Positions 2,893-42,038 of a stretch of 64,000 nt of DNA are shown in pieces. A program made the position numbers and the translations under genes. The DNA lies in the NCBI GenBank assembly GCA_016932215.1, contig JAFGDH010000019.1:1817-65816 (forward strand), written 5' to 3'. The notes below the pieces were generated by a model that saw nothing but the letters and a program-made list of their open reading frames with translations, was not told the DNA's origin and made no database searches. The first letter of the stretch is position 1. The number at the start of each line of letters is the position of its first letter. This stretch comes from Candidatus Aenigmatarchaeota archaeon (GTDB taxonomy: Archaea; Aenigmatarchaeota; Aenigmatarchaeia; QMZP01; QMZT01).

Positions 2893-4038
2893 ATGGAAAG
2901 GGACAGAAAGGGACTGATGGCTCCCGACATGATAGTATTTTTTAGCTCTGCTCTGTTCTTCATGGTGATGTGGTTCCTTCCGCTGCTGTTCGTCGACATA
3001 GGGCTGAGCGGCGTCCAGATAGGAATCCTTCTTTCGGTTTACATGTTCGTCTCCCTCTTCAGCTCCTTCCCGATAGGGGTGATAAACGACCGTTTCTCCA
3101 TCCGGGAGGTCATATTCGCCGGCCTGATACTCTCCTCCCTTTTCATGTTCGGGTTTTCCGTCCTGAAAGGGTTCTGGTTTTTTATGCTCTATTACGCCAT
3201 GGGCGGCCTGGGGCACAACATGGTCAACACATCCCTGAGAAGCCTTATATACAAGCTGTCCAGGAGAAGGAGCGAGGACATGAATCTTGGGGTTTTCCAG
3301 TTTTTCATGTCTTTTGGCGCCAGCATAGGGTATATTGTCGGGGGTTTCCTTATCTTCATTCTCGACTTTGACCTGACCCTTATAATCGGATCCCTTCTCA
3401 TATTTATCCTCTCATTTTTATCCTTTCTCGTGCCGAAGGTGGACATCAGGAAGTTTTCTTTCTGGGAATACAAGCACAGCCTCCTGAAGAAATCGGTCTT
3501 CCTTCTCCTGTTTCCGGTGTTCCTTTTCGGAACCCACTGGGGTGCTGAGCAGACGTCTTACAGCCTTTTCCTGAGGAATTTCCTCGGTCTTGACATCTTC
3601 TATTCCGGTCTTTACATGGGCTTCAGCCTGATGGCAATGGCGATAGGCGGGATTTACGCAGGGAAGCACATAAACAAGACCCGATACCCGAAAAAGCTAT
3701 TCCTTCTTGGCATCCTGATGTCCGGGGTTTTCAGCATCCTTATGGCAAACCCTAACCTTTATCTCTCTTTCCTTTCGAGGTTCCTTCACGAGATCGGCGA
3801 CGGCCTGATGATGGTCAGCTATTACATAATACTTGCTGACATATTCGACAAGAAGATAATAGCCGGGGAATCCAGCATCGCCTACATGGCCCTGGTTCTC
3901 GGTGCCATTGTGGGGGCACCGATATACGGTCACATAGGATTCGTTTATGGCTACCATTTCCCCTTCATAATTTCCGGTTTCGTGAGCCTTTTCTCCCTCA
4001 TGATCATCATGGCCAGGCAGAAACTTATCAAATTCTGA
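2893..4038 (+). CDS. MFS-type transporter
   Basis: 381 aa with about 10-12 hydrophobic segments, a central basic loop (KLSRRRSED) and an overall MFS-like layout. Confidence 0.75.
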   Translation: MERDRKGLMAPDMIVFFSSALFFMVMWFLPLLFVDIGLSGVQIGILLSVYMFVSLFSSFPIGVINDRFSIREVIFAGLILSSLFMFGFSVLKGFWFFMLYYAMGGLGHNMVNTSLRSLIYKLSRRRSEDMNLGVFQFFMSFGASIGYIVGGFLIFILDFDLTLIIGSLLIFILSFLSFLVPKVDIRKFSFWEYKHSLLKKSVFLLLFPVFLFGTHWGAEQTSYSLFLRNFLGLDIFYSGLYMGFSLMAMAIGGIYAGKHINKTRYPKKLFLLGILMSGVFSILMANPNLYLSFLSRFLHEIGDGLMMVSYYIILADIFDKKIIAGESSIAYMALVLGAIVGAPIYGHIGFVYGYHFPFIISGFVSLFSLMIIMARQKLIKF

Positions 4039-4109: not shown

Positions 4110-4901
4110 ATGAATTTTAGACTATTTTCCATAATATTTGTTTTTCTTTTCGTGCTGCCTGTTCTTGCTCAGTCGCTGGAGCTTGCAGGTTTCGAGAGCT
4201 TTCCCGTCTTCCTTGAGGCAGGCAAGCCGAAGGTTCTGGACGCGACCGGACCCGCTTCCGTCATGCTGGAGGTTTCCGTGAAGGAGAACGTCATCGACGG
4301 CGTCGTTTCCGTCGCTTCTTACACTGAGAACCCCGTGGAATACGGCGTCGAAGGCAAGAAATCTGCGAAATTCATAGGTGTCCACGTAAGCGACGACATA
4401 TACGGCAGTCTTGAATACATCGACCTCGAGATACATTACAATGAGGATGATGTGGCCGGCGAGGGGATAGACGAGAACACGCTCAGGATATACGAGTGGA
4501 ACGTGATGGAAAAGGAATGGAGGATGGTTTCGACGGAACTGGACCTCCACAACAACATCCTCAGGACGAGGATAAAGGAACCCGGCATGCTTTCCGTTTA
4601 CGGGAAGGAATTCCGGATGATTGACGAAAAATGTTTGGAAAGATGGATCTGCTCCGACTGGGGGGAATGCATGAACGGAGTCAGGGACAGGATATGCGAG
4701 GACATAAGCGGCTGCGGTACGCAGGATGATAAGCCCGAAGAATTCGAGGACTGCGTGGTGGAGATTGTTTCGGATGACAATCAGCCCACCGGTATGATAA
4801 TTACCGAGAGAACAAACTTGTTGGTTGTTGGGGTGGTGATCTTTCTCGTCATCGTGCTCGCTGTTCTGATCTATCTTTTCATGGTGACAGTAAAAACCTG
4901 A
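4110..4901 (+). CDS. secreted, C-terminally anchored surface protein (PGF-pre-PGF-like domain plus Cys-rich module)
   Basis: An internal ATG at 4110 gives signal peptide MNFRLFSIIFVFLFVLPVLAQS. PGF-pre-PGF-like segment (LRIYEWN..WRMVSTELD...LSVYG). Cys-rich WICSDWGECMNGVRDRICEDISGCG. C-terminal TM helix. Confidence 0.65.
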   Translation: MNFRLFSIIFVFLFVLPVLAQSLELAGFESFPVFLEAGKPKVLDATGPASVMLEVSVKENVIDGVVSVASYTENPVEYGVEGKKSAKFIGVHVSDDIYGSLEYIDLEIHYNEDDVAGEGIDENTLRIYEWNVMEKEWRMVSTELDLHNNILRTRIKEPGMLSVYGKEFRMIDEKCLERWICSDWGECMNGVRDRICEDISGCGTQDDKPEEFEDCVVEIVSDDNQPTGMIITERTNLLVVGVVIFLVIVLAVLIYLFMVTVKT

Positions 4902-6137: not shown

Positions 6138-6338
6138 ATGGTGAGCTGGCTGAAGAACCTGCGGGTGATGTACCATCAGAGAAGGATACAGGACCTTTCC
6201 CACGTAATAAGGGTGCTGAGGGACATGAAGCACGTGGACAACATAAAGCACATACACGACGAGGACATCCTCTTCTTCACGGGAAAGATGATGGCCCACC
6301 TGGAAAAGATACGGGAGATCCGCGGGACGAAACTATAG
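6138..6338 (+). CDS. hypothetical small protein (66 aa)
   Basis: ORF only. Basic, His-rich helical sequence. Confidence 0.35.
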   Translation: MVSWLKNLRVMYHQRRIQDLSHVIRVLRDMKHVDNIKHIHDEDILFFTGKMMAHLEKIREIRGTKL

Positions 6339-6992: not shown

Positions 6993-7583
6993 TTAAACCC
7001 TTTTTAGCGTTTCAATCAGAGGTTCCATTTCAGGTATGAACAGGTCAGGGGCGTCTTCTATTCTTCCTTTGTACAAGTTTTCCCCTGAAAGAGAAACGGA
7101 CATCTCGTTTTCATTCGTTCCGGCATTAAAACTAAAATTGGTGAGTGACCCGGGCGGACTCCACCTGATGTGCATATTTTCTTCAGGTATCCCGCTGTTT
7201 CTGACAATGTTCATGAACCTTTGTATCGATTTGAAATGTGTTTTTGCCATGGTCAGGTAGTCTGGTGCAATCTCTCTTTCCCCTAGTGACAGCCCTTCTA
7301 CAAAATTAAAGTAAAATTCCGGTGTTATTATACCGCCTATCGGAGCGTACAATATGAGATTTTCCGGGTTCCCCAGTCTGTTCAGTGCCCTGTCCAGAAA
7401 GACCAATGACCTTTTAGTTTTTGAGTACATGAAATGGCCGCCGTAAGCACCGTCTCCGTTTGCATTTTCCGGCGCTATTACCGCCCCTATGCAGGTATGA
7501 ATGGGCGTGAATCTTGCGGTGCTTCCGCTGGGAATGTATACTGCACAATCATCCTCAGTGATTTTGTATTCCGGCATGATCAC
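6993..7583 (-). CDS. hypothetical protein (196 aa)
   Basis: Clean ORF with balanced composition. A TATA-like box lies upstream in the 7584-7676 spacer. Confidence 0.55.
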   Translation of the reverse strand: MIMPEYKITEDDCAVYIPSGSTARFTPIHTCIGAVIAPENANGDGAYGGHFMYSKTKRSLVFLDRALNRLGNPENLILYAPIGGIITPEFYFNFVEGLSLGEREIAPDYLTMAKTHFKSIQRFMNIVRNSGIPEENMHIRWSPPGSLTNFSFNAGTNENEMSVSLSGENLYKGRIEDAPDLFIPEMEPLIETLKRV

Positions 7584-8009: not shown

Positions 8010-8413
8010 TGTCCCTGAACGCATTTTTCGGAGACATACAGTTCCACGCTGTCCTTTATTCTTCCGCTGTTCCTTTCTTCGACGCTTGCTGTCAAAATTA
8101 CATTCTTTCCCGCGAAGCTTTTCAGGTTAATCTCCTGATCGCACTTCATATAAGTAAGACCTGTTCCGGTGTTGTGCATGTATGAACAGTCCAGAGCGGA
8201 GCCCGTGGCAACGTTCGAACCCCTTTCCGTAATGCTGAAGTCCGCGTTTCTGAGATCGTAACCGGTTGCTGTAACCACGAGATTGGTGCTTGTTCCAGTT
8301 CTTTCCCCGTCTGCGGGTTCCAGTATTTCGATGGTTGGAACGTTGTCCTGTCCGAGTGCGTTCAGGGGCATGATAGCGAGCAAAAGGATAATTAACACGA
8401 AAGCGAATTTCAT
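8006..8413 (-). CDS. secreted protein (135 aa)
   Basis: Strong SD (GGAGGTGGGAGG) before the ATG. Signal peptide MKFAFVLIILLLAIMPLNALG. Confidence 0.65.
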   Translation of the reverse strand: MKFAFVLIILLLAIMPLNALGQDNVPTIEILEPADGERTGTSTNLVVTATGYDLRNADFSITERGSNVATGSALDCSYMHNTGTGLTYMKCDQEINLKSFAGKNVILTASVEERNSGRIKDSVELYVSEKCVQGH

Positions 8414-8748: not shown

Positions 8749-9780
8749 TCAGCTATTTAACTGCTTCCCGTAGCACCCACCCGAGAAGTACTGGTCGTCC
8801 GTGCAGACCGATCCGTCCGGGAGGACACATACACCGTTAGAGTATTCACCATACCTGTCCATGCAATCGCCTTTCGCCGGCGGGAGCGTTCCGGGGTATA
8901 TCCTGGAATGGCACTCCCTCTCCCTGCAGATGTATTCCGGGTTCAGGTAGTCGCACTGCTCGTCCGTCTGGCAGCATGAGGCGCAGTAGCATTCCCCGAA
9001 TTCGCTGCATTTGGCGTTCGGGTAAAGATGCGTGCACCCCATCCCCCTGCAGTCCACGTTGAACTCGCATCCCCTCGTGAGCTGGTTTATCTTGATCGAT
9101 TCCACTTTACCGTTCTCCACGACCACTATCGCCTCGTACGTGTCCACCACGTCTTTCGTGCTTGAATCGGTCACGAAGCTGTATACGTATTCCCAGCAGA
9201 ACCTGCAATCCAGCTGCCTTACGTTCTGGAAGGTGATGTCCCTCCCGTTCTTCGTCAGGTACGTCTCGCTCTTCCTGATCTCCTTTTCAGCCGTGATCTT
9301 GGACAGTTCTGCTGTGTAGGTCTTGACGAATTCGCCCCCGGAGTATTCGCATCCGAGTATTCCGTACTGCAGGTCGCAGTCCATGGTGCACTCGTTCGTT
9401 TCCTTCGGCTCCTCGCCGCTCCTGTAGCATTCGCAGTCGCACCTCGAAAGCACCGGTTCCCTGAAAGATGTGCAAAGGTCAGCCTCGTCGCAGAATCCCG
9501 GCTGCATTGCCATTTTGCACGCATCGCTTTCCTGTCCCGGAGCGACGAGAGGGCAAGAAATGACGGAATCGTCGATCGCAATCAGCTCGAAACCCTTTCC
9601 GGGGGTCTCGTAAACGACCTTCAGATAATTATCAACGCACGCGTGCACGCTTGACACTTCAGCGTTCCCGCACAGCGGTTCCGCCCTCTGGATGAAATAT
9701 CCTGTGATACATCCGGAGTTGGCTATAATGAAGATCATGCCCAGAAGCACGAATATCCACAGGAATTTATGCGTTGCCAT
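8749..9780 (-). CDS. secreted Cys-rich protein
   Basis: 343 aa. N-terminal signal/anchor (FLWIFVLLGMIFIIANSGC). More than 30 Cys. DUF333-like C-terminal end (CVLPDGSVCTDDQYFSGGC). Confidence 0.7.
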   Translation of the reverse strand: MATHKFLWIFVLLGMIFIIANSGCITGYFIQRAEPLCGNAEVSSVHACVDNYLKVVYETPGKGFELIAIDDSVISCPLVAPGQESDACKMAMQPGFCDEADLCTSFREPVLSRCDCECYRSGEEPKETNECTMDCDLQYGILGCEYSGGEFVKTYTAELSKITAEKEIRKSETYLTKNGRDITFQNVRQLDCRFCWEYVYSFVTDSSTKDVVDTYEAIVVVENGKVESIKINQLTRGCEFNVDCRGMGCTHLYPNAKCSEFGECYCASCCQTDEQCDYLNPEYICRERECHSRIYPGTLPPAKGDCMDRYGEYSNGVCVLPDGSVCTDDQYFSGGCYGKQLNS

Positions 9781-16568: not shown

Positions 16569-16648
16569 AAATTTTTATTTTGATCTTTCGGCGTTTGCCG
16601 AAGAAATCGGGATGGTTTATAAGGGGCCTAATGGAATAATATATTGAG

Positions 16649-18498: not shown

Positions 18499-18558
18499 TT
18501 TATTTTCGGCCAAGACCGAAACATTCCGAATGGTTTATAAACGGTCTTCTTTTAATAA

Positions 18559-33225: not shown

Positions 33226-33912
33226 TTATTTCCTCGCGAGGAAGACGTACCTGTTTTCATCGAACCTCGTTCTTCCTGTTATCACTTTATACCCGTTTGC
33301 TGCAAAATGCTCTTCTATGATAGGTTCAATCGGCTGATTTTTATCGAATCCCGTGCCGATGAACGTGAAATCATGCTTTTTTACGAGCTCTTTCCAGTAT
33401 TGGTTTACGGCCTGGTCCGGGTGCGTTACGATAATGATCGAATCTGATGATATCCCCGCCTTTCCGAAATAACCTTTGGCCTCCCTGCGGATGTGCGCGA
33501 CCGGCACGTTCAATTTATCCGAAAGAATTGATGCCCTGGTGATTTCTTCCCCGCTTTTGTCTATGTTTATGGCGGGATAACCTGTCAGCAGGGCGAATGT
33601 ATGTGAGGGAAACGCGAGAGCCCCGCCCATTTCGAACACCACTCCCTTCCCGTCGTGCACCTGCGCCGCCAGGCCGCCCACCTTGGCGAGAAGCTCCAGT
33701 TCCCTGTGGACGTAATCCCTGAAATCCTTTCTTTCGTCGTACAGAACCGGCACAAGGCCATCCACGTTCCTTCCGTGCGATTCGAACAGGCACCTGGAAA
33801 GGATGTGCGTATGTTCGCCGAACAGCGGTATCTCCCCTGTCTCGTCCCACGGGTCGAGCGTCAGACTTTCCGCGTATTCCGGTATCATCCCGTCCAGATC
33901 CACTGCTTTCAT
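33226..33912 (-). CDS. hypothetical protein (possible Rossmann-fold methyltransferase-like)
   Basis: 228 aa. Weak motif I-like VFEMGGALA followed by AINIDKS. The assignment is tentative. Confidence 0.5.
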   Translation of the reverse strand: MKAVDLDGMIPEYAESLTLDPWDETGEIPLFGEHTHILSRCLFESHGRNVDGLVPVLYDERKDFRDYVHRELELLAKVGGLAAQVHDGKGVVFEMGGALAFPSHTFALLTGYPAINIDKSGEEITRASILSDKLNVPVAHIRREAKGYFGKAGISSDSIIIVTHPDQAVNQYWKELVKKHDFTFIGTGFDKNQPIEPIIEEHFAANGYKVITGRTRFDENRYVFLARK

Positions 33913-34926: not shown

Positions 34927-35667
34927 ATGGACAAAGATCACGTCAAAAAAATAGTCAAAGAGAACTACGGAAGGATAGCTGAGAACAGGGGATGCTGCAG
35001 GTGCGGATGCTCCAAGGGAACGGAGCAGGTATCCAAAGAAATAGGATACTCCGACGACGACCTGGCGAAATTCCCCGAGGCGAACATGGGCCTGGGGTGC
35101 GGGAACCCGACGGCAATAGCAAACATAAGGCCGGGAGACACCGTTCTCGATCTGGGAAGCGGGGCAGGTTTCGACGCCTTCCTGGCCGCTGACAAGACGG
35201 GTAAAGCCGGTAAGGTCATAGGAGTGGACATGACCGAAAAGATGATCGAGAAGGCAAGGACGCTCGCACTGAAGCACGGCCATTCGAATGTTGAATTCAG
35301 GCTAGGTGACATAGAATCCCTTCCAGTCGAAAGCGGAACCATAGACGTGATAATCAGCAACTGCGTGATAAACCTCGCCCCGGACAAATCAGCCGTCTTC
35401 GGTGAGGCGCACATGGTCCTCAGGCCCTCCGGGAGGATGTTCGTCTCCGATATCGTGCTTTTGGAGGAGATCACGGGAGAGCAGAGGAACGACCATCGCC
35501 TTCTGACCGGTTGCGTGGCGGGCGCCCTGCTCAAGGACGATTACATACGCCTGATAGAAAAGGCCGGTTTCGAGGTCCGTGTAATCAGCGAGAACAAGGG
35601 CATAAGCAAGGAACAATATCAGGGCATTCCCCTGGAGAGTCTCGCGGTAGAGGCGACCAAAAAATAA
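34927..35667 (+). CDS. arsM: ArsM-like class I SAM-dependent methyltransferase
   Basis: N-terminal VKENYGRIAE..CCRCGCS. Motif I DTVLDLGSGAGFD. DVIISNCVINL. Confidence 0.8.
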   Translation: MDKDHVKKIVKENYGRIAENRGCCRCGCSKGTEQVSKEIGYSDDDLAKFPEANMGLGCGNPTAIANIRPGDTVLDLGSGAGFDAFLAADKTGKAGKVIGVDMTEKMIEKARTLALKHGHSNVEFRLGDIESLPVESGTIDVIISNCVINLAPDKSAVFGEAHMVLRPSGRMFVSDIVLLEEITGEQRNDHRLLTGCVAGALLKDDYIRLIEKAGFEVRVISENKGISKEQYQGIPLESLAVEATKK

Positions 35668-35668
35668 T

Positions 35669-35863
35669 TCATTCTTCGAACACGAACAGTTCTTCTATCT
35701 TGGCCCCGAGAGCCTTAGCTATGTCATGAGCCAGCCGAAGCGACGGGTTGTACTTACCCTTCTCCAAAAAGACGATGGTCTCCCTCCTGACCCCGACCTT
35801 ACGGGCGAGATCCTCCTGGGTCATCCCGTGCTTCGCCCGGAACTCCTTTATCCTGGTCTTCAC
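35669..35863 (-). CDS. XRE/Cro-C1 family HTH regulator (64 aa)
   Basis: [52 protein letters not shown] start preceded by AGGTGA. Confidence 0.9.
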
Positions 35864-35873
35864 TAATTCACCT

Positions 35874-36006
35874 TCATTCCCCTTTCCTCCCGAACCAGAA
35901 GTACATGATGAAGAAGAACAGCGAGGACCCGAGTATAACCCCGATCGTCATGTAGGTCCCGACAATGCTCCAGTCCCCAGTCCTCTCCGCTATCTCGTTG
36001 ACTTCC
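35874..36006 (-). pseudogene. displaced 3' gene end (radical-SAM-type C-terminus with TM tail), repeat copy A
   Basis: The rc reads ..[44 protein letters not shown]. There is no start except an internal ATG at 35951. It is homologous to the C-terminus of the 40893..42038 product. Confidence 0.5.
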
Positions 36007-36039
36007 CTTTGGCGGAAAATAACCTTTATATACCAATAA

Positions 36040-36056
36040 ATTAACTACTTAATAGT
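36040..36056. promoter_or_regulatory. operator-like motif ATTAACTACTTAATAGT
   Basis: Exact 17-mer match to 7605-7621. Sits between TATA-like boxes of the divergent XRE-side and 36103 genes. Confidence 0.4.
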
Positions 36057-36102
36057 GGTTTATATATAATAGGTCTATAGTGGGGTTTGGGAGTCAGTTG
36101 AA

Positions 36103-36975
36103 ATGAGAAGATATGGTACCGGGGACATGACCGAAGAGGTATACAGGAACGAAATAAGCAGATACGGGAACGTGGGTGAATTTATAAAAAACAGGCCCGA
36201 TCTTGCTCCCGCTTTCGTGAAGTGTTTCGAAGACTGGATTAATTCAGATGTTTCCCTCGTTATAGAAGAGAGGTCAGGGAAAAAGGCGGGTCCGGCTGAG
36301 ATATTTATTCATGTTGGAAACAGGGCTTATACTGACGGGAAAAAAGAAATTTACATACCGGTTTCATATACCTTTCCTTTGATGACGGGGGCTTCCGTCC
36401 ATGAAAGGTTGCATTTCTATCCGGAAGTAAATGAGAGCGCTTTATCGTATCATGAAGAGAAAATAAGGGAATCAAAAACTATTCTTGAAAATGGCGGAAA
36501 GATAGGAAGGGAGTATATTTTGCATTTTTTTAAAACCCTTACAGGAAAGCATTTCGATTCATTAGTTGGTCATATCATATCCGAACTGATAGCTTACACT
36601 GAAACAGGGCCCGTTTTGAATGAGGCAAAAGTTCCGTTCGGGATAGATCCGAAGCCCTATTTTGATATGTGGGAAAAAAATCTGAAAAATGAAAAAAATA
36701 CTTTTGAAAGATATGAGGAAAGGGAACTTTTAATCACACCTGAAAGCTTTTATAATGAACTGATAAAATGGTACCAGTATTATTCTTTTGCTCGTCGCCC
36801 GAACGACGTCATGAAAGGGAATATCATTCCTTTAGTCTCGACACAATTTTCCCATTACGCTAAAATCGTGAACGGTTTTGACGAGATGCCCCCGTCCGAA
36901 TTATGGTCGCTGGAACCCGAGAAATTCGTTGAAGAATACAACAGGAAGGTAAGGAAACTGAAGTCGGGGAAATAG
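36103..36975 (+). CDS. HExxH-motif protein (putative zinc metallopeptidase)
   Basis: 290 aa with GASVHERLHF. No other family features recognised. Confidence 0.6.
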   Translation: MRRYGTGDMTEEVYRNEISRYGNVGEFIKNRPDLAPAFVKCFEDWINSDVSLVIEERSGKKAGPAEIFIHVGNRAYTDGKKEIYIPVSYTFPLMTGASVHERLHFYPEVNESALSYHEEKIRESKTILENGGKIGREYILHFFKTLTGKHFDSLVGHIISELIAYTETGPVLNEAKVPFGIDPKPYFDMWEKNLKNEKNTFERYEERELLITPESFYNELIKWYQYYSFARRPNDVMKGNIIPLVSTQFSHYAKIVNGFDEMPPSELWSLEPEKFVEEYNRKVRKLKSGK

Positions 36976-37000
36976 ATTGTTTTTCCTATCCTTCCCCCGA

Positions 37001-37029
37001 CCTATAACCCCCAGTCCTCTCCGCTATCT
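37001..37029 (-). repeat. gene-end repeat copy B
   Basis: The 21-mer CCCCAGTCCTCTCCGCTATCT (37009-37029) is identical to 35975-35995. The preceding TATAACCCC also matches 35933-35941, implying a ~33-nt deletion relative to copy A. Confidence 0.7.
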
Positions 37030-38051
37030 TCGGATAAAAATTCCCGCCAGTGTCTTTTTTTGATGAAGTCGGACATCTCCTTCCTTCTCTCCGCTTCTTC
37101 CCGGTATTCCTTTATGCGGTCTCTTAAGGTGGGCATTATAAATTCTATCTCGCGCCCATAGTGATTGAACCTGTCAATGTCCGCGAAAGCCAGATTTTCA
37201 GGGTACTCGTTTGCATATCCGCGCATCATGGAAATCAGGTGATTTGCATGCCTGATTTCAGGTGCATATATTATTTTATCTGGCAGCTCCTGCTCTAAAA
37301 GAGAGATTTCCCTTTCTGCATTTTCAATACTCGTCTCGTATTTGCTTATGGTAATGAACATCCTGTTCATCATTACCGGGGTTTTCCACCACATTATGTC
37401 AAGGTATCTCTTCCAGTCGTCTATTTTTGAATCTTCCCCTGATAATCTGGGGCATGTCCTTATGTTGTATCCGGTTATGGGGCTTCCGTTTTCCCACCAG
37501 AACAGATCCGGATGCTCTTTTATCACCACTGAAAACACTTCTTCCATTTCCGGGATGAGTATCTCTTCCTTTGTCTTCAGGTTCAGGCCGGGGAAATCCT
37601 TCCTGTAATCGTAGGAATGGATAAGGACCAGATTTTTATCCGGGTATTGCTCTGTGAACATGGCAAGCTTCATGAGCGCAACAGTACTGATTGATTTGTT
37701 TCTCCATGAACCCTTGACTTCGATGTAATCTCCGGTACTTGGTATGAAAAAGTCAGGGGTATAATTCGTTATTCCCGAATTGGTTATCTCTTTTTTCATG
37801 GTCACCGTTAACGGGAAATACTCTTTCTCGTAAACATAATCGAACCCTGCGACTTTGAGACATCTCGCAATGTTTGCCTCCTGCATGGACCTTACGCTGT
37901 GACCCAGGTCATACCTGTATCCCGCCAGCGGGGTCCCCGTGTTTCCTGACAAAAAAGCACCGTCAACCTGGTTAGGAGCACTGCCTTCAGCCAGCTCAAT
38001 GTCTCCGAAACCGGGATGTCTCATATATCCCTCGATGAAAGGTTTGCTCAT
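37002..38051 (-). CDS. PD-(D/E)xK nuclease-fold protein (TnsA-N/Vsr-like) with orphan C-terminal domain
   Basis: SVRSMQEANIARCL...NYTPDFFIPSTGDYIEVKGSW gives the E...D...ExK catalytic pattern. 349 aa. Confidence 0.65.
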   Translation of the reverse strand: MSKPFIEGYMRHPGFGDIELAEGSAPNQVDGAFLSGNTGTPLAGYRYDLGHSVRSMQEANIARCLKVAGFDYVYEKEYFPLTVTMKKEITNSGITNYTPDFFIPSTGDYIEVKGSWRNKSISTVALMKLAMFTEQYPDKNLVLIHSYDYRKDFPGLNLKTKEEILIPEMEEVFSVVIKEHPDLFWWENGSPITGYNIRTCPRLSGEDSKIDDWKRYLDIMWWKTPVMMNRMFITISKYETSIENAEREISLLEQELPDKIIYAPEIRHANHLISMMRGYANEYPENLAFADIDRFNHYGREIEFIMPTLRDRIKEYREEAERRKEMSDFIKKRHWREFLSEDSGEDWGL

Positions 38052-38105
38052 GTTTTATAAATAGACATAAATTTTTTAACTGGAGAATTCATTCATTCCC
38101 GACAT

Positions 38106-38144
38106 ATAAGCCCCCACCTTCTTAGCTATCTCATTGACCTCTTT
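38106..38144 (-). repeat. gene-end repeat copy C (non-coding relic)
   Basis: The rc reads TAA-KEVNEIAKKVGAYMSGMNEFSS*. 30 of 39 nt are identical to copy D. Confidence 0.7.
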
Positions 38145-38155
38145 TTAGTGTAGAT

Positions 38156-39019
38156 TTACAATAAGAGCTTTTCAATATTTTCCTTAACGACATCGATTTT
38201 TGCGAAATCCTGGATAAAATTATTCCCAACCTGATAGTTAAATGTTATTCTATGACAATTTTTTATTTTCCTGGCTAATTCATGGATCGGGTATGAAAAA
38301 AACAATCTTCCCGCGGGATTTTTTTTCATTTCATTCATCACCGCATCTTTAGATGTATCATAACCAAGCCTGGAAAGAACGGTATCTTCAAGCCTGAGCG
38401 CAATTGCTTCGTCAAAAATACCCATTGTTCCGAGTAATGCTAACATATCCTCAGCAAAATCCCTCCTTTCACGGGTAGTTTTCTTAAATTTCAATTTCAG
38501 GTTTCCCCTCTTATTAACCAGTTTTGCAGGAAAATCATCTCCATTTATAATGTTGCTCAATATTCCCTCTGCGACAACTAATGGGTGATTCTGAAGGGCA
38601 AACCCGATAAAATGATTATATTCATGAATATATGGTGCAATAAAACTGGGGTAATTCGGGTTTCTTGATTTTTCCTTGACAAATCCCTTTTCCGGAAACG
38701 AGAATAACGGATATGATGTTATGGCATTTTGGTAATTTATTCTCCCGTCAGATGAAATTTCAAGGCTTCTGTCATAAGTGGTGGAAGCAGTGAACATGGC
38801 ATCATCAAAACCCCCAAAAAATATGCCGGTACCTATTTTATTTAGTTCCCTGACAGTTTTTTCATCCGTGAAGCTGGACGGCCCAAGTAATCTCTTAGAT
38901 TCGCTATCCAGAAGATGAATATCATCCATTAAAATATCAGAATAGATTTGCATCAATTGATTTCTATATTTTTCCAGTTCTTCTTTTAAGCCCGTGCTGT
39001 TTCCAAAGTATTCTAGCAT
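38156..39019 (-). CDS. HExxH-motif protein (putative zinc metallopeptidase)
   Basis: 287 aa with APYIHEYNHFIGF. Very AT-rich. Confidence 0.6.
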   Translation of the reverse strand: MLEYFGNSTGLKEELEKYRNQLMQIYSDILMDDIHLLDSESKRLLGPSSFTDEKTVRELNKIGTGIFFGGFDDAMFTASTTYDRSLEISSDGRINYQNAITSYPLFSFPEKGFVKEKSRNPNYPSFIAPYIHEYNHFIGFALQNHPLVVAEGILSNIINGDDFPAKLVNKRGNLKLKFKKTTRERRDFAEDMLALLGTMGIFDEAIALRLEDTVLSRLGYDTSKDAVMNEMKKNPAGRLFFSYPIHELARKIKNCHRITFNYQVGNNFIQDFAKIDVVKENIEKLLL

Positions 39020-39038
39020 AATGCATAACCTCTTTAGC

Positions 39039-40826
39039 CTAAACGTCTTCCCAGACGAAGTCCTGCCATCTTCTGTCGATTATCTTTTGAAGGTGGAATT
39101 CCTTGAGCATTTTATAAACGTCATTTCTTGTCAAATAAAATACGCCGGGGTTTTTCTCCATACTATTCAGTTCACTGATTGTTTTCTCATCGCCGAATTT
39201 TTCGATGTATTCCCTCCCTGAAATTAATTTATCCATTTTTCTATGTGTCACTGGATCGAAACCCATTTTCATGGACTGACTTATTTCGTCAGAAAAAAAC
39301 AAGCCACCCTCATAACTCATCCCTATCATATTCAGCCCAATCCCGTACCGATTTTCTATCAGCTCAGCTTCCTCTCTCAGACGCAATTGATTAATCACCT
39401 TATCTATCTTGGACGGGTCTTCTGCCCCGACAATCAGAACTCGGCGCCCGTCGGGAAATATGCGAGGCTCGGTCCCCGGTCTTTGGAAATTCGAGGTATC
39501 TTTTACGACTTTCGTATAAAACTCTCTTGCTTTTGCAAGATACCGGAAAACTCTTTCCGGAATGGCTTTGTGTATCCTGTAATATACTTCCAGAAGGTTG
39601 GCTGAGGTTCCGCTCGAATACCTGAACTGTGAATCCATTCCCCGGTCCAAAAAGCCCTTCCTCACGGCCTCCCTGAATTTCTGCACGTCTTCATTTTCAA
39701 AATTACGCCAGAAACCTATCCCCGTGCCCTTTTCAAGATATTTCATGAAATCGTCAATATCCTCGTCGAAACATCTTAGTATTGTGGGCAATATTCTTGT
39801 TGAAATGGCATGCCTCCAGAACCTGTTGGATGTTACATGACCGGACGGCAATACTATGTTATCGTCTTCTGAAATCCTGTAATCGAAATCCTCAACGAAC
39901 GAACATATCATGCTTTCTAACATTTCATCGTATTCCATGACATCCTTGTAGCTCTTTAGCAGTTCCAGCATGTTTTTCATTTCCCCCGACACGATACCTT
40001 CCCCCAAAAATTCGTTCGTCTTTTTAACGTGTTCCATCTGATGCCTTTTCAGTATCTTTTGTATTTCCGTGACTCTTGCGGTTGCATGGGTTTCGTTTCT
40101 GTCGCTCATGAAATGCTGAAACACTATCGCATATTCCGGGCTCAGTGATATGTGCGGTTCCTCTTTTGGCTGGTTTTCGAAGGTGCGGGTGGTTCCCCTG
40201 CAGTCATTAAGATAACGCATTATTCCGCGCCTGATATTCACATAGAGCTGGTAATTGAAATACATGCTTTTCGGGTCGTCTTCATATTCCCTGAAGTCAT
40301 TGAACTCCGGGTTTATTTCTCTTCCGAGAACATTGAATATTTCCCAGTCCCTGGGAGCGAGGGTTTCTCCTCTCAGCCAGTTTTCAACAGTGCTTACGTG
40401 CCTCTTTTTACCGTTCCTTTCAAGCGCATTAACTACCCATTCGGCCATCATCTCATAGTCTTCTTTAGCGAAATCATCAGTTTCATAGAGCGCCCTAGAA
40501 TCAATATCAGAATCGTCTATCACACCTTTTTCCGATAATCCCTTCAGAAGCAGGGTCCTTAATCTCGGAATGAAATCTCCCCTTGAATTCTGTTCGTGTA
40601 TCATCTCTTTTGAAAAGTGATATCTGGGGCTTTTGTCAAGATGTGGCTCAACATCCTCAAGATCCGTCTTTGCATAAGGCTTCTGGAATAAGACCATATC
40701 CCCGACATTGACATCGGCTACTTTCTTCTTAAGATAACTTGAAGGGGATACCTGAACATACACGTCTCCGGTTGGATCCAGAAATGAATCTCCCATTGTT
40801 GTTGATATCAAATATTTAGCTACCAT
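39039..40826 (-). CDS. large orphan protein (595 aa)
   Basis: Long clean ORF ending 19 nt upstream of the 38156..39019 gene's start. No motif recognised. Confidence 0.7.
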   Translation of the reverse strand: MVAKYLISTTMGDSFLDPTGDVYVQVSPSSYLKKKVADVNVGDMVLFQKPYAKTDLEDVEPHLDKSPRYHFSKEMIHEQNSRGDFIPRLRTLLLKGLSEKGVIDDSDIDSRALYETDDFAKEDYEMMAEWVVNALERNGKKRHVSTVENWLRGETLAPRDWEIFNVLGREINPEFNDFREYEDDPKSMYFNYQLYVNIRRGIMRYLNDCRGTTRTFENQPKEEPHISLSPEYAIVFQHFMSDRNETHATARVTEIQKILKRHQMEHVKKTNEFLGEGIVSGEMKNMLELLKSYKDVMEYDEMLESMICSFVEDFDYRISEDDNIVLPSGHVTSNRFWRHAISTRILPTILRCFDEDIDDFMKYLEKGTGIGFWRNFENEDVQKFREAVRKGFLDRGMDSQFRYSSGTSANLLEVYYRIHKAIPERVFRYLAKAREFYTKVVKDTSNFQRPGTEPRIFPDGRRVLIVGAEDPSKIDKVINQLRLREEAELIENRYGIGLNMIGMSYEGGLFFSDEISQSMKMGFDPVTHRKMDKLISGREYIEKFGDEKTISELNSMEKNPGVFYLTRNDVYKMLKEFHLQKIIDRRWQDFVWEDV

Positions 40827-40892: not shown

Positions 40893-42038
40893 TTACCCAT
40901 CTGCAGACTTGTAAGCTCCCGTCCTCTTGGCTATCTCATTAACTTCCTTAGGATGGGAGAACAATGCACATGGGGTCCCCTCGTTTTCCAGAAGATGTTC
41001 GCTTTCGCGGATTTCCCTGAAGAGCTTGCTGGAGAAGGCTTCCCTGATTGTTGATTTCAGGAGGTTGTGGGTGGCGATGTTGGAGACCGGGCAGGGTGTC
41101 AGATCGCCGGTCGGGGTGACGTGAGCGAAGCCCTTGCCTGCCGAGACGCATCCTCCAAAGTATTCTTCGTCCCCTGGCGAGTGAATGAGGTAGATCTTCT
41201 TGGTTTCCCTGATCCTGAGGACGAAATCCCTGAACTCTTTCCTTTCCTCACTGGTGAGCATGAGCCTGTGATCATTGCCCCTCTGGGTGACCGGGATGTA
41301 TTCGATGAGGGCAGCGATCTTTATTCCCTTCGCTATGAGGGAATCGATGAGCTTTTCGTCCATCCAGTGGCGGAAGTTGTTCTTGGTTATTGTTGCGGAT
41401 ATTCCTGTTGGAATGCCTGCCTTTATTAGGGCCTGGATGGTCTTTTGTGCCTTTTCGTGGACACCATCGCCTCGTCTCTGGTCGGTCATTTCCTTCGTTC
41501 CTTCCATGCTGACCAGTACACACGTGTTTTTGCAGGATTTGAGTGTATTGATCTCTTTTTCCTGGATTGCTGTGCCATTGGTTAGTATTATGAACAGTCG
41601 GTCGGAGAAGTCTTTGCATATATGGGAGAGGTTGTCTGTAAGGAATGGCTCCCCTCCTGCTATTACGAAGCCAAAAACCCCTGCTTCCGATGACTTTTTG
41701 ATTATTTCTTTCCACTTGCTGCGGGATAGTTGTTTTTTCTCCTTTTTGGAGACGGTTCCTGCCGCCGAGGCATAGCAGCCCGCGCAGGCTAGGTTGCACA
41801 TGGAGGTTATGCTAAGAATCAGGAACGGGGGTATCTTGATCCCTTCCTTCTTTAGCCTGTCCCTGGTTTCGCTGGCCTTTTTGCAGGACTTCATCAATCC
41901 GAGGAAGGAACGGAAGTGGCCTGGATGAGCGACTGCCCATTTGAAGAAGACTTTCGTGAGGTTAGGATCGAGAGTGTTAAGGTATTTTCGGAAGGAGATG
42001 ACCCTTTTCAGAAGGCAGAAGTCTGAGATTTTCGCCAT
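40893..42038 (-). CDS. radical SAM protein with C-terminal auxiliary Cys motif
   Basis: CNLACAGCYA (CX3CX2C). GGEPFL. C-terminal GGCVSAGKGF..TPCPVS..CALF (SPASM/twitch-like). Confidence 0.85.
   Translation of the reverse strand: MAKISDFCLLKRVISFRKYLNTLDPNLTKVFFKWAVAHPGHFRSFLGLMKSCKKASETRDRLKKEGIKIPPFLILSITSMCNLACAGCYASAAGTVSKKEKKQLSRSKWKEIIKKSSEAGVFGFVIAGGEPFLTDNLSHICKDFSDRLFIILTNGTAIQEKEINTLKSCKNTCVLVSMEGTKEMTDQRRGDGVHEKAQKTIQALIKAGIPTGISATITKNNFRHWMDEKLIDSLIAKGIKIAALIEYIPVTQRGNDHRLMLTSEERKEFRDFVLRIRETKKIYLIHSPGDEEYFGGCVSAGKGFAHVTPTGDLTPCPVSNIATHNLLKSTIREAFSSKLFREIRESEHLLENEGTPCALFSHPKEVNEIAKRTGAYKSADG
40912..40950 (-). repeat. gene-end repeat copy D (functional 3' end of the radical SAM gene)
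   Basis: Encodes KEVNEIAKRTGAY. It is the reference copy for repeats A-C. Confidence 0.7.

Follow-up and report, generated by a model that had tools for sequence, protein, structure and literature searches.

A T7 endonuclease I-like nuclease gene among displaced radical-SAM gene ends in an Aenigmatarchaeota archaeon

A 64,000-nt stretch of contig JAFGDH010000019.1 from a Candidatus Aenigmatarchaeota archaeon, hereafter the window, carries a nuclease gene between copies of a short repeat. The open reading frame (ORF) at 37002..38051 on the minus strand encodes 349 aa, is intact, and is by sequence and predicted fold a T7-endonuclease-I-like PD-(D/E)xK nuclease. It belongs to three low-GC inserts stacked immediately 3' of the stop codon of a radical-SAM gene, and the repeats that separate the inserts are displaced copies of the 3' end of that gene. 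We tentatively read the locus, with somewhat less than even confidence, as an insertion hot spot that duplicates gene tails and houses the cassette of a selfish, homing-type nuclease, which would itself promote the insertions. The hot spot is notable for having no recognisable recombinase and for recurring around the few relatives of the nuclease.

The radical-SAM/SPASM host gene (40893..42038(-), 381 aa, Pfam Radical_SAM, Fer4_12 and SPASM) encodes a protein ending in ..HPKEVNEIAKRTGAYKSADG, and its last 57 nt (40893-40949(-), KEVNEIAKRTGAYKSADG and the stop, tail positions 1-57) are the fourth and functional copy of the repeat. This tail is kept across the family in archaea and some bacteria, with the consensus ..PCALF[AS]HPKEV.E[LI]AK.VGAY[KR]T.., and this identifies the repeat as the radical-SAM gene's own 3' end. 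An NCBI 'Candidatus Aenigmarchaeota archaeon' protein matches the window protein at 100% identity, and the next-best match is at 60%. Against the resident tail, the relic copies show 7 synonymous and 3 nonsynonymous changes (B), 7 and 5 (C), and 5 and 2 (A), with the differences mostly at third codon positions and of all base types. The mainly synonymous divergence shows that each relic evolved as a working gene end before displacement, and that the conservation of the repeat comes from past protein-level selection followed by duplication. An earlier reading of the sequence alone had taken the repeat for a recombination or recognition site conserved at the DNA level, a view that this coding origin displaces. 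All four copies contain the heptamer AGATAGC unchanged, and it is exactly there that the homology of relic C starts. The longest identity block between the resident tail and B is 11 nt, and the radical-SAM tail reconstructed from C and A reads REVNEIAERTGGYRSGEG before its stop. Hairpin folding of the four copies was no better than that of shuffled sequences (DNA z-scores 0.01 to 1.36). The radical-SAM tail with relic B is the sole non-domain gene-end direct repeat in the window.

The displaced copies B, C and A partition the inserts, which together form a 4.9-kb island with a GC content of 0.37-0.45, against 0.50-0.56 in both flanks. Cassette 1 (38156-40826(-)) consists of the genes c595 and then c287, and relic tail B (38100..38150(-), read as H, a stop, and KEVNEIAKKVGAYMS) starts right behind the c287 stop as a displaced radical-SAM 3' end. 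Cassette 2 is the nuclease ORF, which together with about 48 nt of promoter-like upstream sequence takes up the space from copy C (36986-37030) to copy B (38100-38150), and so is a single-gene unit as first described. Relic tail C (36986..37030(-), KIAERTGGYRSGEG and a stop, tail positions 14-57) holds the core and the right arm, including the radical-SAM tail's own stop. Cassette 3 is the gene c290, on the plus strand and flanked by the identical 21-nt core. Relic tail A (35976..36011(-), QREVNEIAERTG, tail positions 1-34) holds the left arm and the core and is fused to a different downstream frame. Insert junctions lie exactly after the stop codon. The unit size is one to two genes, the nuclease bringing at least its own conserved upstream region.

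The 21-mer CCCCAGTCCTCTCCGCTATCT has two exact copies, at 35975-35995 and 37009-37029, with none expected from 100 dinucleotide shuffles. On the minus strand the nuclease frame reads it as ..GAT AGC GGA GAG GAC TGG.. (DSGEDW), close to the C-terminus ..FLSEDSGEDWGL, and the open frame of copy A reads GAG ATA GCG GAG AGG ACT GGG GAC TGG (EIAERTGDW), one base away. The last nuclease codons are thus indeed written in the shared repeat one frame off copy A, as the sequence-only reading had it. The nuclease tail is about 20 residues longer than the end points of its homologs and terminates at a chance TAG inside relic C. At the junction the gene has lost the stop that it once had, and its last 10 codons enter relic C in the +1 frame, so that about 10 codons of the relic are read off-frame. 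Because the repeat is a displaced coding tail and the nuclease C-terminus is extended, the use of the repeat in two frames is accidental read-through and has no function.

The downstream frame of copy A belongs to a small membrane-protein gene remnant (35874..35975(-)) that, by its translation, is 5'-truncated and has no start codon. Compared with a DUF2178-annotated gene at L001, one of the loci with a nuclease homolog, the DNA similarity of the copy A region is convincing only from ..ATTGTCGGGACC onward, and A is therefore read as a radical-SAM relic fused to the truncated membrane-protein gene. The tail of the remnant resembles the DUF2178-annotated neighbour of the L001 helix-turn-helix (HTH) homolog (..LYFGRKGDA and stop). 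The possibility that copy A is native DUF2178 sequence was rejected, since Pfam gives no match to the fragment.

The nuclease was compared with T7 endonuclease I as represented by Pfam PF05367 and PDB 1M0D, 2PFJ and 3CAE. It matches Phage_endo_I (PF05367) over residues 51-147 with an E-value of 3.3e-5 and 24.0 bits, below the gathering threshold of 29.1, and PHROG 945 'endonuclease' at 7e-10, with no match in NCBIfam or PADLOC. Its best sequence match among solved structures is T7 endonuclease I, with the aligned stretch YTPDFLLPN-GIFVETKGLW. The relatives share the signature GYRxDLGHxVRSxWEANxARxL..YxYEP..YTPDF..EVKG, and D48, R54, S55, E58, E75, D100, E111 and K113 are each at least 90% conserved in 111-123 aligned relatives. 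The N-terminus MSKPFIEGY is matched in homologs by MSRPFSSGY and MSKIFSEGY. An AlphaFold2 monomer model from a 123-sequence alignment has a per-residue confidence (pLDDT) above 90 for residues 40-200. A Foldseek search of predicted viral structures (BFVD) places a phage 'Endonuclease I' on top (8e-9, TM about 0.5-0.6), and the same search of the PDB gives nothing significant. The N-terminal nuclease domain (residues 1-220, 37392..38051(-)) has its PD-(D/E)xK core at about residues 36-150, with E75, D100, E111 and K113. Sequence and predicted fold thus agree on the PD-(D/E)xK assignment first made from the letters. TnsA had been named there for fold comparison, and it is outscored by other PD-(D/E)xK folds.

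The C-terminal region (residues ~212-341, 37029..37418(-)) appears from AlphaFold2 and the homolog alignment to be a long-helix, coiled-coil-like part that is variable among homologs. Its helices (residues 212-255, 264-286 and 292-341, pLDDT 70-92) come from a model with a 4-sequence alignment that is uninformative for the nuclease domain. On sequence grounds the protein is best treated as a divergent sister subfamily of the T7 endonuclease I family, a rare subfamily that is new within a known kind of nuclease. The upstream region of the gene (38052..38099(-), TCCAGTTAAAAAATTTA..CTATTTATAAAAC and then the ATG) is promoter-like, and about 45 nt of it are conserved across the window and the homolog loci L001 and L004. 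Conservation at all three loci indicates that the nuclease gene travels with its own upstream region, which is a candidate promoter.

Distant relatives were collected with a three-sequence profile of the N-terminal 225 residues, which found 953 cluster representatives at E ≤ 1e-3. Phage_endo_I is matched by 76 of the 111 distant relatives (E below 1e-3). NUMOD3 motifs occur in 21/111, and 13/111 have intein splicing domains (Intein_splicing) in DNA polymerase III alpha (DnaE). In P0156 the intein (626-999) encloses both NUMOD3 (816-834) and the nuclease domain (855-934), which by its position in the sequence would be the homing endonuclease of the intein. Viral contigs carry 79 relatives. Together, the intein, NUMOD3 and viral occurrences indicate that this nuclease domain is widely used by selfish elements. 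Nothing specific on a T7-endonuclease-I-like intein endonuclease was found in the literature searched.

Close homologs are few, with three among 5.8 billion (5.8e9) proteins. P0001 is the window locus itself, and the independent settings are therefore two. P0003 at locus L004 is 58% identical and lies inside a 2.66-kb segment flanked by a 148-nt direct repeat (99% identical). This repeat corresponds to the 3' portion of a gene for a 63-aa membrane protein, and the homology stops about 10 nt past the stop codon. L113 (contig JABAOC010004084.1) is related to L004 and has the small gene in single copy with other neighbours; no nuclease gene was detected in the 290 nt upstream, where the contig ends. 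The coiled-coil region of P0003 contains a 69-nt tandem duplication (L004 2334-2471, 83% identical), which explains its extra length and shows that the coiled-coil half is evolutionarily plastic. A promoter-like motif, ..CTTAAAAAGGATTTT.., precedes nearly every small gene at L004 (455-497, 831-873, 1560-1607, 2714-2756, 2931-2973 and 3203-3245), and may mark cassette boundaries or just be the local promoter consensus.

P0002 at locus L001 is 50% identical and lies 1 kb from an array of tail relics. There, a membrane-protein gene ending in ..FAAVLMVVIDLCRGGLED is followed by a cassette of 109- and 120-aa genes, the relic RGGLED with its stop, a cassette of Fic and 74-aa genes, and the relic FAAVLMAVIDLCRGGLED with its stop. 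The membrane-protein tail copies (7408-7464, 8251-8271 and 8904-8960) are thus repeated behind each of two toxin-antitoxin (TA)-like cassettes, and the relic FAAVLMAVIDLCRGGLED differs from the gene tail by 12 synonymous and 1 nonsynonymous changes. An alcohol dehydrogenase (ADH) tail at the same locus (1258-1314 and 6208-6264) is repeated directly behind a 1590-aa BNR/sortilin-like gene. The more distant P0125 (210 aa, nuclease domain; L110 4387-7130) is flanked by Fic and MNT-like genes with a type I restriction gene, HsdR, nearby, a setting that is a defence/TA island. The sequence-only reading had asked whether homologs are flanked by relics of a host gene end. This holds for P0003 with its duplicated end, P0002 is only beside an array, and no gene-end relics were found around P0124 and P0125.

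L009 comes from the closest relative of the window organism. Its radical-SAM protein is 80% identical and is truncated before the tail, and about 60 nt of the radical-SAM promoter with the first 7 codons are duplicated (3180-3245 and 4320-4385) around a HEPN gene (162 aa) and an MNT nucleotidyltransferase gene (186 aa). Since this duplication surrounds a HEPN-MNT cassette without a nuclease, the habit of duplicating gene ends may be a trait of the lineage and not of the nuclease.

As the relic control, a generic search looked for C-terminal tails that had been displaced. The viral loci (719 kb) had none, the radical-SAM loci (324 kb) had nothing but tandem full-length paralogs, and the other loci (49 kb) had one paralog pair. 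When all radical-SAM loci were translated in six frames and searched with a hidden Markov model of the tail, resident tails alone came up, so the radical-SAM family does not in general carry such an array. Neither the insert nor relics were seen in other radical-SAM loci of GTDB genomes (0/23), the nearest complete ortholog being only about 57% identical in these genomes and 60% identical in the protein database. The 21-mer was not matched exactly by any JGI metagenome contig, and exact-product look-ups for the nuclease and the radical-SAM protein gave no record. No tRNA genes or Rfam families were found within the window. Integrase, Cas1 and transposase were not detected in the four cassette proteins (Pfam, NCBIfam, PHROGs and PADLOC) or in 36 window ORFs (Pfam), a search that covers the 64-kb window and leaves room for a trans-acting enzyme encoded outside it.

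In the reading that we tentatively favour, each incoming unit would comprise one or two ORFs with a promoter and a copy of the tail, and would join at the gene tail around the invariant AGATAGC. The incoming tail would become the functional end, and the previous tail would be displaced downstream. The nuclease would most likely be a selfish homing-type endonuclease that cuts at or near such gene ends, and the cut may help its own cassette, and possibly neighbouring ones, to insert via break repair or recombination. The relatives with NUMOD3 and in DnaE inteins, the sporadic distribution, and the tail duplications at both other homolog loci support a homing-type enzyme. The failure to find a known recombinase and the precedent from fungal mitochondria (PMC6279837, described below) also speak for this reading. 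The mobility or homing role suggested by the sequence-only reading is accordingly plausible at the family level, with P0003 within a duplication and P0002 near an array, while the causal link, by which the nuclease would drive insertion, is weakened by L009 and by the nuclease-free cassettes.

Several points weigh against a nuclease-driven hot spot. Two of the three window cassettes have no nuclease, the nuclease at L001 is beside the array and outside it, and the L009 duplication is on a 5-kb contig with no nuclease. T7 endonuclease I is structure-specific, not site-specific, and classical homing replaces sequence and does not duplicate it. The duplicated host genes vary by locus (radical-SAM, two small membrane-protein genes and ADH), so that one fixed recognition sequence cannot explain all cases, and the target of the nuclease at gene ends is itself putative. 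No NUMOD, HTH or zinc-finger module in the nuclease is matched in Pfam, NCBIfam or PHROGs. A close sister genome with an empty site was not found in the GTDB radical-SAM loci, the protein database or the JGI contigs. Fic, TA and type I restriction-modification genes are found close to P0125 and P0002, settings that a cargo or defence role would fit equally.

The main rival, possible though rather unlikely, is that the array arose by repeated site-specific integration through a trans-acting or lost recombinase, the nuclease being passive cargo or an unrelated selfish gene. The units would be small integrase-less or decayed elements, each with a mimic of the radical-SAM tail as its attachment site. 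In archaea, integrated elements frequently have the 3'-distal part of a gene as their target, and they may replace the stop codon and form tandem arrays (PMC6563490). The heptamer shared by all four copies, at which relic C begins, and the identical 21-nt core of C and A would suit an attachment site, and tail mimics that arrive with an element and have to preserve host gene function would diverge mostly at synonymous positions, as the copies do. The L009 pattern, with its nuclease-free cassette, also fits. Against such integration stand the lack of any integrase, Cas1 or transposase match in the cassettes and the 36 scanned ORFs, the cassettes of just one or two genes, and the short identity blocks between the resident tail and B (11 nt at most). 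At L001 tail relics come from two unrelated genes within 7 kb, and several site specificities would be needed. A different proposal, and an improbable one, makes the nuclease an effector of defence or abortive infection, or a toxin-like one, within a variable island, where homology-driven, Campbell-type or illegitimate recombination with DNA of related strains makes the duplications without a dedicated mobility enzyme. The TA or defence cargo at related loci (Fic with the 74-aa gene and the 109-aa with the 120-aa gene at L001, HEPN with MNT at L009, and Fic, MNT-like and HsdR around P0125) speaks for it, as do relics that resemble the tails of other alleles and duplicated genes that are unrelated between loci, which favour a sequence-independent mechanism. 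PADLOC, however, matches neither the nuclease nor its neighbours, homologous recombination works poorly on tails of about 50 nt with only 70-77% identity, and the family link to inteins and NUMOD3 favours homing over defence.

An assembly artefact, with repeats and junctions produced from collapsed or chimeric strain variants, has very little probability. The source is a metagenome-assembled genome (MAG), and the Logan contigs of the same run (SRR13394437) break within the island. These independent contigs nevertheless reproduce the junctions B-nuclease-C and c290-A-HTH at 100% identity (window 36689-38259 and 35538-36452), so the junctions are not a MAG chimera, and the relic copies are too diverged to confuse an assembler. 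A TnsA-like subunit of a Tn7-type element, or the nuclease of another cut-and-paste element, is effectively refuted as the identity of the protein. It would share the PD-(D/E)xK core; the sequence affinity, like the fold scores given above, is with T7 endonuclease I rather than TnsA. No TnsB, TnsC, TniQ or other transposase genes are nearby, no terminal inverted repeats surround the nuclease unit, and where a Tn7-type element would leave a 5-bp target-site duplication, the duplications at the flanks here are long, of unequal length and diverged.

Like T7 endonuclease I, the window nuclease has the YTPDF..(D/E)xKG catalytic motif and the E, D, E, K spacing. It differs in an extra conserved segment (150-220), in the coiled-coil tail of about 130 residues, and in being chromosomal in an archaeon. 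T7 endonuclease I is a domain-swapped dimer that resolves four-way junctions, and the window protein is likened to it by sequence and a monomer model. The PD-(D/E)xK homing endonucleases (free-standing and NUMOD3-linked, borne by DnaE inteins, or of the I-Bth0305I / I-Ssp6803I type) offer a parallel in that the same nuclease domain family occurs in DnaE inteins and beside NUMOD3, and in that the window gene sits at the end of a conserved host gene. Unlike them, the window nuclease has no NUMOD3, HTH, or intein or intron context, and its flanks are duplicated and diverged, not cleanly replaced.

C-terminal gene duplication associated with a homing endonuclease is reportedly known from Allomyces atp6/ORF360, a case ascribed to Paquin et al. 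in 1994. In fungal mitochondria, homing-endonuclease ORFs lie between a gene and its duplicated C-terminal end in cob and atp6 of Endoconidiophora resinifera (PMC6279837). The window resembles this case in having partial C-terminal host-gene copies downstream with ORFs between (PMC6279837). The fungal enzymes, in contrast, are of the LAGLIDADG or GIY-YIG type in organelle genomes, and the window has an array of successive tails in which most cassettes have no nuclease.

Among integrated elements of Thaumarchaeota, 14/68 target the 3'-distal part of protein-coding genes, and archaeal integrated elements can replace the stop codon and form tandem arrays by re-use of one site (PMC6563490). The window shares with archaeal tyrosine-recombinase elements and casposons (PMC6563490), and with tycheposon-type islands that have partial tRNA repeats, direct repeats of the target 3' end that bound each insert, a re-used site, a stop codon that the insert can supply, and cargo units without an integrase. 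It differs from the archaeal element arrays in that no integrase or Cas1 is detected, the units are of one or two genes, no terminal inverted repeats are present, and the repeats are unequal (about 21-57 nt) and synonymously diverged. As in integron arrays, cassettes of one or two genes are stacked promoter-proximally, each ending in a repeat that resembles a recombination site; unlike them, the window has no IntI, its repeats are copies of a host gene tail and not attC hairpins, and one cassette is inverted. Three further mechanisms, besides Tn7, were considered and rejected: integron attC sites, with no IntI and no hairpins; a casposon, with no Cas1 in or beside the array; and a diversity-generating retroelement, with no reverse transcriptase family in any scanned ORF and with copy differences that are not adenine-specific.

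The other cassette genes have no assigned function. c595 (39039..40826(-), 595 aa) is of low GC, and a weak DrmE_C-like stretch is its one resemblance to a known family. Its seven homologs lie at unrelated loci, with no viral relatives and no gene-end relics around them, and it looks like a sporadic, possibly selfish gene. One c595 homolog, with a 469-aa ORF without assigned function, is inserted between the archaeal ribosomal protein genes L4 and L23, and another adjoins MazE-PIN and SNase genes (L116 7001-10202 and L114 7001-8764). c287 (38156..39019(-), 287 aa) has the HExxH motif IHEYNH, no matches in Pfam, NCBIfam, PHROGs or PADLOC, and no relation to the 469-aa partner. c290 (36103..36975(+), 290 aa) has the HExxH motif VHERLH and likewise no family match in these databases. 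Despite the common HExxH, c287 and c290 have no detectable relation.

The first gene past the array is an XRE-family HTH gene (35669..35863(-), 64 aa) that is 77% identical to the HTH gene beside P0002. A pair of an XRE HTH gene and a small membrane-protein gene is beside the nuclease both in the window (35669-35975(-)) and at L001 (11049-11730(-)), with side and orientation differing, and the window partner is the membrane-protein gene reduced to its last ~33 codons. A gene for an ArsM-like S-adenosylmethionine methyltransferase (34927-35667(+)) is close to the radical-SAM gene in the window, and at L022 (10001-12064, Thermoplasmata) a methyltransferase that is 52% identical directly adjoins the radical-SAM gene. 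We take this neighbourhood to hint that the host gene is part of an arsenic or other methylation pathway. A 36-nt stretch (33703-33738 and 41214-41249, 83% identical, ERKDFRDYVHR and ERKEFRDFVLR) links the interior of the radical-SAM gene to an unannotated 228-aa ORF (33226..33912(-), BLASTP E 0.004). Further away, a 44-nt intergenic repeat (16586-16629 and 18504-18547, 70% identical) with the hairpin TTTCGGC..GCCGAA and then TTTATAA brackets a 1.9-kb segment with two small ORFs, and could be a shared terminator or promoter or a cassette boundary.

A broader and quite doubtful proposal is that Aenigmarchaeota and other DPANN-type archaea have a recombinase-free form of gene capture, in which cassettes of one or two genes with host-gene-end mimics insert precisely at the gene boundary and duplicate the end, the nuclease being the dedicated cutting or resolving enzyme. 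Such a system would follow an integron-like logic in which attachment takes place at gene tails. Should the nuclease be no more than cargo, the locus would remain a clean tail-duplicating hot spot without a visible recombinase, and the protein an ordinary if rare member of its family. The synonymous divergence of the displaced tails records successive imports from related lineages, and so traces horizontal transfer at this locus over time. Should the nuclease indeed promote the insertions, an enzyme of the T7 endonuclease I type would join the known drivers of archaeal gene mobility. This would explain how genome-reduced DPANN archaea, seemingly without the usual integrases at these sites, gain and shuffle TA pairs, nucleases and other small genes while the host gene is left undamaged.

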